From: Oscillospiraceae bacterium
Lineage (GTDB): Bacteria; Bacillota; Clostridia; Oscillospirales; Ruminococcaceae
Length of the DNA stretch: 64,000 bases
Assembly: GCA_022508895.1 (NCBI GenBank)
Contig: JAFLUH010000001.1
Coordinates: 77,265-141,264 of the forward strand
Reading direction: 5' to 3'
The notes below the pieces were generated by a model. The model saw only the letters and a list, made by a program, of their open reading frames with translations. It did no database searches and had not been told where the DNA came from. The position numbers were made by a program, and so were the translations under genes. Position 1 is the first letter of the stretch, and every line of letters begins with the position of its first letter. Shown here one piece after another: positions 5,153-49,637 of this stretch.

Positions 5153-5371
5153 ATTATAGCAAAAAATGAGCATGAAGCGAAGCGGAATGCGATTCCTCTA
5201 AAGGATAAAATAATCTTAAACATTAAAATCAATTGTTCCTCTTTACTTCGTTTAAGATTATTATAGCAAAGAAGAGCATGAAGCGAAGCGGAATGCGATT
5301 CCTCTAAAGGATAAAATAATCTTAAACATTAAAATCAATTGTTCCTCTTTACTTCGTTTAAGATTATTATA
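5153..5371 (-). repeat. tandem pair of a 106/107-bp element bounded by TATAAT; candidate miniature mobile element
   Basis: 5168-5265 is identical to 5274-5371 (98 bp); ATTATA (TATAAT on minus) at 5153, 5260 and 5366; homologous to 48250-48362. Confidence 0.92.
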
Positions 5372-5399
5372 ATACTTTAAGGTGGAAAAAAATGTCGAA
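5366..5399 (-). promoter_or_regulatory. Spo0A-dependent sigma-A promoter of the spoIIG operon
   Basis: TATAAT (minus, 5366-5371) and a perfect 0A box TGTCGAA at 5393-5399, in reverse orientation and 21 nt away, as in the Bacillus spoIIG promoter. Confidence 0.7.
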
Positions 5400-7268: not shown

Positions 7269-7298
7269 GTTATATCAGAACTTATTCAATAAAAATTC

Positions 7299-7327
7299 TT
7301 GCAAAAATTGCGCTTATATGCTATAAT
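7299..7327 (+). promoter_or_regulatory. sigma-A promoter of ruvCAB
   Basis: TTGCAA-N17-TATAAT with extended TG. Confidence 0.7.
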
Positions 7328-7375
7328 AAATTGTTATAATAGAAAAGCTATGTTCTATAGGAAATAACATGTAAA

Positions 7376-45351: not shown

Positions 45352-48171
45352 ATGTCAATCAACAAGATAGTTATAAAAGGGGCAAAGGAGCATAATCTAA
45401 AAAATGTAGATTTAGAGCTTCCAAGGGATAAGCTTATCGTGATGACAGGGCTTTCGGGCTCGGGAAAATCTTCTTTGGCTTTTGATACGATTTACGCCGA
45501 TGGACAGCGTAGGTATATTGAAAGCCTTTCGTCATACGCCAGAATGTTTCTCGGGCAGATGGAAAAGCCCAATGTGGAGAGCATCGAGGGCTTGTCTCCG
45601 GCTATCTCCATAGATCAGAAGACCACTTCAAAAAATCCTCGCTCCACAGTGGGAACGGTAACGGAGATATACGACTATTTAAGGCTTCTCTATGCAAGGA
45701 TAGGTATCCCTCATTGTCCTGTATGCGGAAAAGAGATACGTCAGCAGACCGTAGATCAGATAACCGACAGGGTCATGGAGCTTGAAAAAGGCACTAAGAT
45801 ACAGATAATGGCTCCTGTTGTCAGAGGAAGAAAAGGCGAATATGCCAAGGAGCTTGAAAGCATAAGGAAGCAAGGCTATGTCAGAGTGCGGATAGATGGG
45901 ATCATGTACGATGTATCCGAACAGATAAAGCTGGAGAAAAACAAAAAACACAATATCGAGGTCATAGTTGACCGTCTTGTTGTCAAGGACGAGATAAGAT
46001 CCAGACTTACCGAGAGTATTGAAACAGCAGGCACTCTTTCGGGAGGGATAGTGTTTGTTGATGTGGTTGGGCAGGAGGAGCTGCATTTTTCACAAAACTA
46101 TGCTTGTCCTGAACATGGCATAAGCATTGAGGAGCTGAATCCCAGAATGTTCAGCTTCAACAACCCTTACGGAGCCTGCAAGCGCTGTACAGGACTGGGT
46201 TTTTACATGAGCATTGACGAGGATCTTATCATTCCCGATAGAGAACTGTCTATCAGCGAAAACGCCATTAAGGCAAGCGGATGGAATTATGCGCCGGGCA
46301 CAATGGCACAGATGTATATGGATGGGTTGGCAAAGCATTACGGTTTTTCAGTTGATGTTCCCGTAAAGGATTTACCTGAACACGCACTTGATCTTATACT
46401 TTACGGCTCTAACGGTGAGAAATTTCCGGTACACCGTCCTTGGGAAGGCGGAAAAGTCGATTATATGACAGATTTCGAGGGGATAGTCAACAATCTGGAG
46501 CGCCGCTTCCGTGAGACAAGCAGTCAATATTCCAAGGATGAGATATCTGACTATATGTCTGAGGTGGAATGTCCCGAATGTCATGGTCAGAGATTAAGGC
46601 AAGAAGCGTTATCGGTGACTGTTTCGGGAAAAAACATCAATGACTTCTGTAACATGAGCGTTACTCAGGCGCTGGATTTTGCCAATAAGATGGAGCTTAC
46701 TCCGAGAGAACGCATGATAGCTGATCAGATACTTAAGGAGATAAGATCGCGATTAGGTTTTCTGCAAAGCGTAGGTCTAGATTATCTGAAGCTGTCCCGT
46801 GCTTCAAGCACCTTGTCCGGCGGGGAAAGCCAGCGTATACGCCTTGCTACGCAGATAGGCAGCTCCCTTGTAGGAGTGCTGTACATTCTGGACGAGCCAA
46901 GCATCGGACTGCACCAGCGTGACAACGACAGGCTCATTGCTACATTGAAGGAGCTTCGTGATGTAGGCAATACGGTGATAGTCGTAGAGCATGACGAGGA
47001 TACCATGCGTGCTGCCGATTATCTTGTTGATGTGGGACCGGGAGCAGGTGTTCACGGAGGAGAGATAGTAGCGGCAGGTACGGTAGACGACGTCATAAAA
47101 TCAGAGCGCTCCGTGACAGGTAAGTACCTTTCAGGAAAAATGAAAATTCCCGTTCCTGCACAACGCAGAAAACAGGACGGGCGTTTTCTCACTATTCACG
47201 GCGCTGCAGAAAACAACCTCAAAAATATTGACGTAAATATACCGATAGGTTTATTTACCTGCATAACAGGCGTTTCAGGCAGCGGAAAAAGCTCTCTTGT
47301 AAACGAAATAATGTATAAACACCTTGTTGCTAAGCTGAATAGGGCAAGAGTCAGGGCGGGAAAATTTGACAAGGTGACAGGCTTGGAGTTTTTGGATAAA
47401 GTCATAGATATTGACCAGTCGCCTATCGGCAGGACTCCACGTTCCAACCCTGCCACTTACACGGGATTGTTTACCGATGTTCGTGACCTTTATGCTTCCA
47501 CTAATGACGCAAAGATGAAGGGCTATTCCAGCGGCAGATTCAGCTTCAACATAAAGGGCGGCAGGTGCGAAGCCTGCGAGGGAGACGGTGTAATCAAGAT
47601 AGAAATGCATTTTCTTCCCGATATTTATGTGCCATGTGAGGTCTGCGGCGGTAAGCGCTATAACAGAGAGACCCTTGAAGTCAAATATAAGGGAAAATCA
47701 ATTTACGATGTGCTGGAAATGACAGTGGAGGAAGGGCTCGAATTTTTCTCAAGCATACCTAAACTGTCCAGAAAGCTGCAAACATTGTATGATGTAGGCT
47801 TAGGCTATGTGAAAATAGGACAGCCTGCAACTACGCTTTCGGGTGGTGAAGCACAGCGTGTCAAGCTTGCTACAGAACTGTCGAAACGCCCTACAGGAAA
47901 GACTATATACATTCTGGACGAGCCTACTACGGGACTTCACACCGACGATGTGGCAAAGCTGATAGATATCATACAAAAGCTGACCGACGGCGGAAATACT
48001 GTTGTAGTTATAGAGCACAACCTTGATGTGATAAAAACGGCAGATCATATCATTGACCTCGGTCCCGAAGGCGGTGACAACGGAGGATACATTATTGCTG
48101 AGGGAACTCCGGAGGAGGTTGCAAAAAACAAAAAATCTTATACCGGTAAATATTTGAAGAAAATGCTGTAA
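45352..48171 (+). CDS. uvrA: excinuclease ABC subunit A
   Basis: GLSGSGKSS and GVSGSGKSS Walker A, two Zn fingers, LSGGESQR and LSGGEAQR. Confidence 0.98.
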
Positions 48172-48176
48172 TAGCA

Positions 48177-48206
48177 AGGTGCGGAAGAGCCCGCACCTAA
48201 TTTTTT
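48177..48206 (+). terminator. intrinsic terminator after uvrA
   Basis: AGGTGCGG-aagagc-CCGCACCT followed by AATTTTTT. Confidence 0.8.
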
Positions 48207-48226: not shown

Positions 48227-48255
48227 TTGTAAGATTTAATGAAATATGCTATAAT
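48227..48255 (+). promoter_or_regulatory. sigma-A promoter of hom
   Basis: TTGTAA-N17-TATAAT with extended TG. Confidence 0.75.
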
Positions 48256-48362
48256 AATCTAAAAATAAATATAGTGGTTTATATGATTTTGAATTTTTAG
48301 ATTATTTTAGCGTTCAGCGGAATCACATTCCGCTTCGCTTCATGCTCTATTTATGCTATAAT
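48250..48362 (+). repeat. third copy of the 107-bp TATAAT-bounded element
   Basis: 90/113 ungapped identity to the reverse complement of 5153-5265; flanked by direct repeat TATGCTATAAT (48245-48255, 48352-48362). Confidence 0.9.
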
Positions 48363-48398: not shown

Positions 48399-49637
48399 AT
48401 GGTCAAAATAGCTGTGATAGGATACGGAGTTGTTGGTTCAGGCACCGTTGAGGTTTTTTATAAAAATCTTGAAAGCATAGAGAAAAAGATCGGCGAAAGC
48501 ATAGATATCAAATATATACTCGATTTAAGGGACTTTACAGGTACTCCTTACGATGAAAAATTCATCAAAACCTTTGATCCGATAATAAATGATGGCGAAA
48601 TAACGGTGGTTGCAGAGGTGATCGGCGGGATAAATCCCGCATATCAATATGTCAAATCATTGCTTGAAGCGGGAAAAAGTGTAGTTACCTCGAACAAGGA
48701 GCTGGTGGCAGAAAAGGGAGCGGAGCTGCTCCGTATAGCGCGTGATAAAAAAGTAAACTTTTTCTTTGAGGCAAGCGTAGGAGGAGGCATACCGATAATT
48801 CGTCCTCTTCATCATTGCCTTTCCGCCAATGAGATAGACGAAATAGCAGGTATCCTCAACGGTACTACCAATTTTATCCTTACAAAGATGATAAGTGAAG
48901 GAATGGCGTTTCACAAAGCTCTTTCCCTTGCACAAGAGCTTGGTTATGCTGAACGGGATCCTTCTGCTGATGTTGATGGTCATGACGCCTGCCGCAAAAT
49001 ATGTATACTTGCTTCTCTTGCATTCGGAAAGCATATTTATCCCAGAGATGTACACACCGAGGGAATATCCATGATCACCGCCGAGGACGTTCAATATTGC
49101 GATGATTTCGGAAGCAGAATAAAGCTTATCGGCTGGGCAAGCAAAAGGGACGATAAAGCGGCTGTTATGGTGTGCCCTGCATTTATTTCGGAATCAAGCC
49201 AGCTCGCAGGTGTAAACGATGTATTCAATGCAATACTTGTACGCGGCGATGCCACCGGAGACGTTATGTTTTACGGCAAAGGGGCAGGAAAGCTCCCCAC
49301 GGCAAGTGCTGTGGTATCAGATATCATAATGGCTGCCAAAATGAACGATAACAGCCGATCGCTTTACTGGGACGACTCGGAGCAGCCCTTTGTGCTCGAC
49401 AGAAACGAAATTGATAACAGGTTTTATCTAAGATTGATTTGCGAAAACAAATACGAAACCTTAAAGCAGGCAGAAAAAATGTGGGGCAGGCTCGTACTGC
49501 TGCACAGAAACGGCGAAGAGGAAAACGAGCTTGCTTTTGTGACCGAAAGCATCAACGAGAAGAAGTTTGAAAATGATTGTGCTCTGATTTCAGATACTGC
49601 TGAAATCAAAGGCAAAATAAGAGTACTTGGTTATTAA
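48399..49637 (+). CDS. hom: homoserine dehydrogenase
   Basis: GYGVVGSG, VVTSNK, FEASVGGGIP, GILNGTTNFIL, GKGAGKLPTASAV. Confidence 0.96.
   Translation: MVKIAVIGYGVVGSGTVEVFYKNLESIEKKIGESIDIKYILDLRDFTGTPYDEKFIKTFDPIINDGEITVVAEVIGGINPAYQYVKSLLEAGKSVVTSNKELVAEKGAELLRIARDKKVNFFFEASVGGGIPIIRPLHHCLSANEIDEIAGILNGTTNFILTKMISEGMAFHKALSLAQELGYAERDPSADVDGHDACRKICILASLAFGKHIYPRDVHTEGISMITAEDVQYCDDFGSRIKLIGWASKRDDKAAVMVCPAFISESSQLAGVNDVFNAILVRGDATGDVMFYGKGAGKLPTASAVVSDIIMAAKMNDNSRSLYWDDSEQPFVLDRNEIDNRFYLRLICENKYETLKQAEKMWGRLVLLHRNGEEENELAFVTESINEKKFENDCALISDTAEIKGKIRVLGY

Follow-up and report, generated by a model that had tools for sequence, protein, structure and literature searches.

How did the promoter of hom, the homoserine dehydrogenase gene, come to carry its extended -10 box twice, and what is the sequence that separates the two copies? 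The locus lies in a window of 64,000 nucleotides, the whole stretch of DNA that was analyzed, from the genome of an Oscillospiraceae bacterium (G000). A first-pass annotation had viewed the sequence as a third, diverged copy of an element that also occurs in front of spoIIG and had proposed a dispersed, promoter-targeting element rather than a gene-specific riboswitch. The unrelated genes that the copies precede and the empty orthologous promoters of relatives support this proposal. The hom stretch is, we believe with good confidence, a copy of a mobile, box-targeting insertion module of about 100 to 110 bp, noncoding and nonautonomous, one of a family of small mobile elements that occurs in gut Clostridia and has apparently not been described before. 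Going beyond the annotation, we describe a right TGn box that is borne by the element, an internal inverted box that covaries with it, and tandem arrays.

Results

The hom locus

The features of the locus are collected in Table 1. A promoter, TTGTAA-17-TATAAT with a TG (48227-48255), lies between the terminator of the uvrA-like gene and hom, where the annotation had placed it ahead of the element. The box TATGCTATAAT is found at 48245-48255 and again at 48352-48362, which confirms the 107-bp period and the flanking 11-bp repeat. Set against the reverse complement of 5153-5265, the + strand of 48250-48362 aligns with no gap, and an exact recount agrees with the 90 of 113 identities reported earlier; the second spoIIG unit gives 82/113, also ungapped, and unrelated 113-mers from both strands of the window reach 55/113 at best. 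A repeat search of the window recovered the hom/spoIIG pair as 119 nt at 81%. The hom and spoIIG copies do have the same orientation relative to the downstream gene.

The hom unit is a family member by nhmmer and covariance model (113 bits) and is 93 to 95% identical to two copies elsewhere in the genome (C102:20547-20668 and C21:3795-3913). Its right box has the TGn, but the hexamer found 17 nt upstream, at the -35 position, reads only TTCGCT. Simple scans called neither an intrinsic terminator nor a second promoter within the unit. Judged from the sequence, the native -35 and left box are predicted now to drive the unit, with the right box serving as the gene-proximal promoter core.

The window also contains the unoccupied TATGCTATAAT box that had been pointed out before. 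It lies in a promoter at 7291-7329 that is 74% identical to that of hom over 39 nt (AAAAATTCTTGCAAAA...TATGCTATAATAA), is followed there by AA, and stands in front of what we take to be the ruvC region, the gene name being that of the earlier annotation.

Table 1. Features of the hom locus and related sites, in window coordinates
Feature	Position	Strand	Remark
Two tandem family units, spoIIGA promoter	5153..5371	-	Orthologous promoters empty in relatives
Unoccupied TATGCTATAAT box	7317..7327	+	
Intrinsic terminator of uvrA-like ORF 45352-48171	48177..48198	+	8-bp stem, 6 GC pairs, T tail
Native -35 hexamer TTGTAA, hom promoter	48227..48232	+	Conserved in relatives
Native extended -10 box TATGCTATAAT (left box, target)	48245..48255	+	Single in relatives' empty sites
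Hairpin 1, 5' arm (AATAATCTAAAAA)	48253..48265	+	Opens with the last 3 nt of the left box
Inserted 107-bp unit (AATCTAAAAA ... CTCTATTTATGCTATAAT)	48256..48362	+	Not in closest relative
Hairpin 1, 3' arm (TTTTTAGATTATT)	48294..48306	+	From alignment fold and pair counts
Internal inverted box copy (ATTATTTTAGCG)	48301..48312	+	n' is G at 48310; can pair with right or, alternatively, left box
Inner 3' hairpin GCGGAAT-CAC-ATTCCGC, then conserved TCCGCTTCGCT	48317..48333	+	
Right box, extended -10 TATGCTATAAT, element borne	48352..48362	+	36 nt upstream of hom ATG
hom (homoserine dehydrogenase) ORF, downstream of insertion	48399..49637	+	

Empty sites in relatives

That the hom stretch is an insertion follows from three independent empty sites, at hom, at an IS200-like tnpA, and at spoIIGA. 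In the closest relative (contig JAFLTA010000072, L047), whose Hom protein is 87% identical and encoded in the same uvrA-hom neighborhood, the region reads ...catgaaatatgcTATAATtatccagtaggacaataaagg...ATG, with a single box and no unit. Its promoter, gaaatatgcTATAAT|tatccag, is what joining the left and right flanks of the locus in the window would give. A single box is likewise present at the hom promoter of the congeners G001, G008, and G005, and the left box with its upstream flank occurs once at the empty sites of L047, L013/L046, and L014. The promoter of the IS200-like tnpA reads ...gatatggTATAAT|agtaacgg... in G066 and is also empty in G017; three to six units occupy exactly this point in G041. 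At spoIIGA, relatives read 0A-box(gcttcgaca)...TATAAT|catatacggtgat..ATG, with no TGn, and the promoter in the window has two units between TATAAT and tatatcggtgat..ATG. With the orthologous hom, spoIIGA, and IS200 tnpA promoters empty in relatives, the element is not a regulatory leader confined to hom and spoIIG orthologs, an alternative that had been raised at the outset.

The Spo0A box gcttcgaca is kept by relatives at spoIIGA (window 5153-5398, - strand), and the two units move it 213 bp away from the gene-proximal box. Conceivably, these insertions could make expression of the sigma-E processing protease less dependent on Spo0A.

Copies in the genome

An iterated nhmmer search of the genome yielded 22 matches (17 full length and 5 partial or variant) at about 19 loci, in keeping with the expectation of many more copies genome-wide. 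Full copies start at a TATAAT with TTGxxx about 17 nt upstream and end in CTCTTTTTATGnTATAAT; their left flanks constitute a TTGxxx-N17-(TRTGn)TATAAT promoter. All assessable copies are sense oriented, and placement at random positions or orientations is refuted by a same-strand open reading frame that starts within about 200 nt downstream at 16 of 18 assessable loci. The downstream genes, named from their translations, are functionally unrelated and on the same strand: ddl, a LytTR regulator, spoIIGA, glmS, an XRE regulator, pyrC, a surface protein gene, the holB operon, purE, cheV, hom, a GH31 glycosidase gene, dusB, metA, yfcE, cmk, and a lipoprotein gene. One copy (C107:8209) is located behind a fortuitous ...CTGA|TATAAT that coincides with a gene's stop codon and ahead of that gene's terminator, the motif there being TGATATAAT; the target is thus a sequence and not promoter function. 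The genome holds 1,859 TATAAT, 280 TGnTATAAT, and 71 TATGnTATAAT sites, and 24 of the last are at elements, leaving about 47 free by rough subtraction. Copies are 72 to 95% alike and so give no sign of current activity.

A variant subfamily (C168:2421-2544 and the end of C57, 35026-34970) has the same boxes and arms (TATCTTAGGG...CCTAAGATAA), a longer first loop with a hairpin of its own (aaaatgcctttcggcatttt), and a shortened 3' domain; its units precede cmk and the lipoprotein gene. Units or arrays also lie at contig ends or gaps (C70:1-159, C107:18374-18590 at an N gap, and the C57 end), so that the true copy number is probably underestimated in this draft genome.

Anatomy and structure of the module

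The module consists of AAYCTCARAC, a variable loop, GTYTGAGRWYATT, the inverted box (TTA n' C R), a second hairpin, and CTCTTTTTATG n TATAAT. Its two ends, AATCTC... and ...CTCTTTTT, do not form an inverted repeat, and reading of the copy sequences revealed neither terminal inverted repeats nor an open reading frame conserved across copies. A small open reading frame in the unit (MFKIILSFRG...) was dismissed, as neither its frame nor its stop is conserved among the copies.

According to RNAalifold and pair counts, hairpin 1 has 13 bp, seven of them changed on both sides, with 99% of alignment cells paired. The closing stem of the second domain joins the internal ATTAT(T)TTA-n'-C-R to the Y-G-n-TA(TAAT) of the right box, and an inner 4-bp helix covaries as well (GCAC/GTGC, GCAT/ATGC, GAAC/GTTC, and ACAC/GTGT). 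Over the consensus fold, 97.6% of cells are paired, compared with 87.1 +/- 0.8 for shuffles and 41 to 55% for slid partners, and overall 13 pairs carry double-sided changes. Three of the conserved pairs are G.U, which restricts this fold to the sense strand.

The base n' pairs with the right n in 78 of 82 units from many genomes (C-G 57, T-A 16, A-T 5); the G-C type is that of the hom, C102, and C21 copies of this genome. With the right box as partner of the internal segment, the fold had z-scores between -2.75 and -5.2 for six of the seven copies tested. In the spoIIG copy n' does not pair with n, and the fold is no better than that of shuffles (z = +0.28). When paired alternatively with the left box, hairpin 1 grows to 18 bp with one T.T mismatch, as read from the sequence. 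Transcription from the left promoter would start inside the first arm and does not cover the left box itself; we therefore infer that the conserved pairing acts in single-stranded DNA and not in RNA. In some subfamilies (G066 and the Ruthenibacterium lactatiformans units), the second hairpin resembles a terminator with a T tract.

What is duplicated at the target

Among 28 loci whose flanks are clean, the left side has T in 25, R in 27 (A in 16, G in 11), T in 25, and G in 22, followed by n; TRTGn is the classical extended -10 motif of Firmicutes. The true extension of the target is this upstream T-R-T-G-n. A longer target preference had instead been suspected from the similar sequence behind the last TATAAT of both loci (TATATCGGT versus TATCCGGT), a suggestion that we do not follow: TATAAT|TATCCAG already stands at the relative's empty site, so that the similarity is native flank, and a logo of the 28 loci has only a weak bias at +1 to +8.

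Position -4 at these loci is A or G on the left and nearly always A on the right, and hence no duplication extends to the left of -3. The native box of spoIIGA has no TG (aagcTATAAT and gcatTATAAT in relatives, gtatTATAAT on the left in the window), whereas the right box there is TGCTATAAT; the right TGn is thus borne by the element, and only TATAAT is shared at this site. Left and right n are identical in 20 of the 28 loci, a number reached by 0 of 100,000 permutations, and where they differ our reading of the sequences has the right n pairing with n' in seven of eight. At two exceptional loci (G041 C4:23560 and R. lactatiformans C8), the same n stands left and right and does not pair with n'; these loci fit true target duplication or in-box recombination better than a strictly element-borne right box. 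The duplicated length is inconsistent, from 6 bp at spoIIGA up to 11 bp at hom. In our reading, the unit would be AAYCTC...TATGnTATAAT and would enter directly 3' of TATAAT, with a preference for targets that have TRTGn like its own end.

Distribution across genomes

When 61 genomes of the genus (metagenome-assembled genomes [MAGs] of uncultured gut Oscillospiraceae) were searched with a covariance model built from 17 copies of this genome, 11 carried the family, in a patchy pattern and with 1 to >60 matches per carrier. Tandem arrays are common and are the rule in some genomes. In the 3-Mb genome G041, about 178 units were counted by their left-arm pattern, in arrays of up to at least six to seven units. 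Across 200 genomes of the order, the narrow model gave no match above threshold in 119 other genera and matched congeners only. Built from this genome only, it misses a wider superfamily that emerged from a pattern scan of all species genomes and shares the box, the arm AACCTCARAC, the return arm GTYTGAGRACATT, and the inverted box. The loops of these units are quite different, and their periods fall into classes of about 100 to 109 and 156 to 168 bp. Their hosts are many gut Oscillospirales MAGs (mouse, human, ruminants, and rabbit) and include the cultured R. lactatiformans 585-1, with 25 left arms and tandem periods of 145 to 149 bp, and Yeguia hominis NSJ-40, with 6.

Viral contigs (IMG/VR), plasmids (PLSDB), and phages (INPHARED) yielded no copy. 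A search of all GTDB species with the exact 3'-hairpin motif was discarded, having returned only chance matches in unrelated phyla. Rfam gave no relevant match to the window and six other copies at the gathering threshold, nor to the locus at an E value of ≤10. At C3:35431-35490 of G041, two units on opposite strands start head-to-head within 60 bp and possibly represent colonized divergent promoters.

Search for a mobilizing enzyme

A larger, gene-carrying version of the module was not found, as left arms with distant right arms were chance pairs only. The Y1 transposase domain (PF01797) is absent in G000, G069, G032, G001, G012, and G164, and over more than 30 genomes it is not associated with the element, many PF01797 genomes being without it. 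The IS110 recombinase domain (PF01548) is lacking in G000 and in G041 with its about 178 units. An IS110-family element with a bridge RNA was rejected on this ground, PF01548 being missing where the element is most abundant. With no such enzyme encoded here, the copies of this genome are probably relics moved in trans.

Adjacency to a Y1 gene in G041 had made that transposase a candidate mobilizer, which we discarded; the IS tnpA promoter is itself colonized, given that this IS is free of units in G066 and G017. This IS200-like element (G041 L062 C6:116300-118000, L063, and L064; G066 L061; G017 L057) bears the LE hairpin ccaccggctcagccggtgg as well as RE hairpins, and its tnpA has about 155 aa; it appears to target the position 3' of TTTTG, a sequence that also seems to form its own end. 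Its G041 copies are mostly decayed by stop codons, an intact Y1 TnpA being encoded at C6:116920-117276, and all of them carry arrays of 104-bp units at the tnpA promoter box, so that the IS takes the arrays along and multiplies them.

Discussion

The module as we understand it inserts one way, immediately 3' of the TATAAT of a sigma-A promoter, with T-R-T-G-n-TATAAT boxes preferred. A box then stands at both ends, the left one native and still coupled to the native -35. Since the right box, brought by the element, lands directly before the native start region of the gene, the gene would keep a promoter core. This new core is a TGn extended -10 that looks activator independent and lies 107 bp (or n x 107 bp) from the old -35 and upstream operators. 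The sense strand would fold as single-stranded DNA, in which the internal inverted box may act as a guide or attachment complement that pairs with the module's own end and with the target box. By analogy, an IS200/IS605-like single-strand mechanism is our leading, tentative guess. It is somewhat doubtful whether the module further represents a new class of guide-bearing single-strand modules that would recognize extended -10 boxes via the internal inverted box, provide the gene with an activator-independent promoter core, and, mobilized in trans by a host or other enzyme, propagate themselves as promoter swappers; were it so, a change in n' would retarget the module.

The data show the insertion itself, its position and orientation, the family's size and patchiness, the arrays, the covarying fold, and the element-borne right TGn. 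Box-to-box recombination at an att-like core would join an excised, probably single-stranded and folded unit or multiunit circle with one box to a promoter box by means of a host or other site-specific recombinase. Its models would be integron attC cassettes and CTX-phage/XerCD integration. The overlap would include n, so that identity in n is preferred and either allele may end up on either side, which accounts for all n patterns, including the two target-like loci. A folded hairpin that makes the box double stranded with a mismatch or bulge fits as well, as do the attC-like variable loop, the arrays, and an enzyme that is not element encoded. We nevertheless regard such recombination as unlikely. 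No recombinase was identified, and a B. subtilis-type dif consensus had only two weak matches in this genome, at 7/28 mismatches. Target and element share only TATAAT at spoIIGA, a very short core, and the established stiffness of DNA makes a double-stranded circle of 107 bp physically unlikely. Enzyme-free template switching through microhomology would require less: at a replication fork stalled by the hairpins, a nascent strand that ends in a -10 box would reanneal on the box of a unit located elsewhere, copy one or more units, and switch back, and selection on promoter output would keep the products. A shared box of just 6 to 11 bp would suffice, the same orientation would be automatic, identical n, variable crossovers, and multiunit insertions are predicted, and the missing transposases pose no problem. 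It leaves unexplained, however, why the arms AACCTCARAC/GTYTGAGRAC are conserved across genera despite free loops and why n' and n covary near perfectly, and about 178 units in a 3-Mb genome are many for such rare events; we consider it quite improbable.

The fold might alternatively act in RNA, in a host regulatory cassette, be it a multicopy small-RNA gene or a structured leader, composed of a promoter, a hairpin RNA, a terminator-like hairpin, and a new promoter, that is recruited repeatedly to insulate or boost expression. The strand-specific structure with its G.U pairs would agree with this, as would the resemblance of the second hairpin to an intrinsic terminator with T tract in some subfamilies, the Shine-Dalgarno-like AAAGAGGAA in the loop of the ~105-bp class, and the TGn extended -10 on every unit. 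However, the best-covarying pairing includes the -10 boxes, the left one of which is untranscribed from its own promoter, loops and Shine-Dalgarno-like motif are not conserved in the superfamily, Rfam has no match, and orthologous promoters are empty. Such a cassette, to which we assign little probability, would still require a mechanism of mobility and thus complements rather than replaces the mobile-element reading. A riboswitch or attenuator specific to hom and spoIIG has in its favor the leader position and the conserved fold, but with about 19 unrelated downstream genes, empty orthologous leaders, one copy behind a gene end, tandem arrays, and no Rfam match, its probability is close to nil, and the empty sites and the gene list led us to rule it out.

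The single-strand mechanism that we favor has its closest models in the IS200/IS605 family (IS608/ISDra2 and PATEs), peel-and-paste elements that insert 3' of a short target, which the element end may repeat (PMC3597680; PMC7290912). The module is similar to PATEs and IS200/IS605 elements in having no terminal inverted repeats but covarying hairpins near both ends and in its insertion in one orientation 3' of TATAAT, seen in all three empty/filled comparisons, with an end that repeats the target as a pseudo-duplication. Its internal complement lies 5' of the 3' hairpin, a layout that may correspond to that of a guide and its cleavage site. In contrast, its target measures 6 to 11 nt (TATAAT with TRTGn) rather than 4 to 5 nt, about 10 nt pair in plain Watson-Crick fashion, and the left hairpin starts inside the target, with neither a linker nor a separate left guide. 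Furthermore, the hairpins are unlike the LE and RE of the resident IS200-like element (ccaccggctcagccggtgg etc.), and no Y1 transposase occurs in this genome or is associated with the module across genomes. The module thus seems to behave like an IS200/IS605 passenger, yet we cannot assign it to IS200/IS605.

Correia elements are bounded by terminal inverted repeats and can insert either way round, duplicating TA as their target, whereas the module has no such repeats, a single orientation, a -10 box as target, and tandem arrays. The Correia repeat-enclosed elements of Neisseria (Siddique et al. 2011, PMC3024310, cited in PMC3575422) are abundant, noncoding, and about 100 to 150 bp long and carry or create sigma-70 -10 boxes; they are like the module in being small intergenic mobile repeats with -10 boxes at their ends that rewire neighboring genes. 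Putative mobile promoters (Matus-Garcia, Nijveen, and van Passel), defined in the region from -150 to -50 by at least 80% identity over 50 nt, are similarly highly alike sequences ahead of unrelated genes within a genome, with a mechanism of mobility that is not established (PMC3575422). They are, however, a bioinformatic category that lacks defined ends, structure, or target, and the module has these as well as empty sites.

Integron attC and CTX-phage attP are recombination sites that fold from single strands and are served by an enzyme from outside the mobile unit. Like them, the module has a strand-specific hairpin that rebuilds a double-stranded site with mismatches or bulges, a variable loop, arrays, and promoter-adjacent insertion; unlike them, it targets dispersed promoters and not one attI or dif, and by eye its arm GTTTGAG does not fit the GTTRRRY of attC. 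REP/REPIN with RAYT, BOX, RUP, ERIC, and bcr1 are other short structured intergenic repeats (PMC8266576, PMC8049555). The module resembles them in its covarying stems, its tens to hundreds of copies, and its patchy occurrence among relatives. To our knowledge, none of these families has been reported at a fixed -10 position or to regenerate a -10 hexamer. A classical MITE mobilized by a DDE transposase was rejected in view of the missing terminal inverted repeats, the inconsistent duplication length, and the single orientation.

Small dispersed repeats that bear promoters are, in short, known already from Correia elements and putative mobile promoters (PMC3575422). We found no published description of a family with the -10 hexamer as its homing site, a regenerated extended -10, and an internal inverted copy of the target sequence, and there is a sizeable chance that the recognition principle of the module is new. 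The n':n covariation suggests that this principle is programmable and perhaps exploitable, and the presence of the family in cultured human-gut R. lactatiformans and Y. hominis makes it experimentally accessible. If our reading is correct, promoters are a transposition target in gut Clostridia, and each insertion parts a gene from its -35 and activator sites while adding a TGn extended -10. This would provide a repeatable route of regulatory rewiring for housekeeping, sporulation, and biosynthetic genes.

For annotation, the units need to be masked or flagged, as they break assemblies (several are at contig ends) and mimic leaders and riboswitches. Two full units and a truncated third lie ahead of a MATE-type efflux gene in R. 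lactatiformans (C8:95700-96100, L225); the truncated unit runs into the listed frame of the gene, the annotated start of which may thus lie within the repeat.
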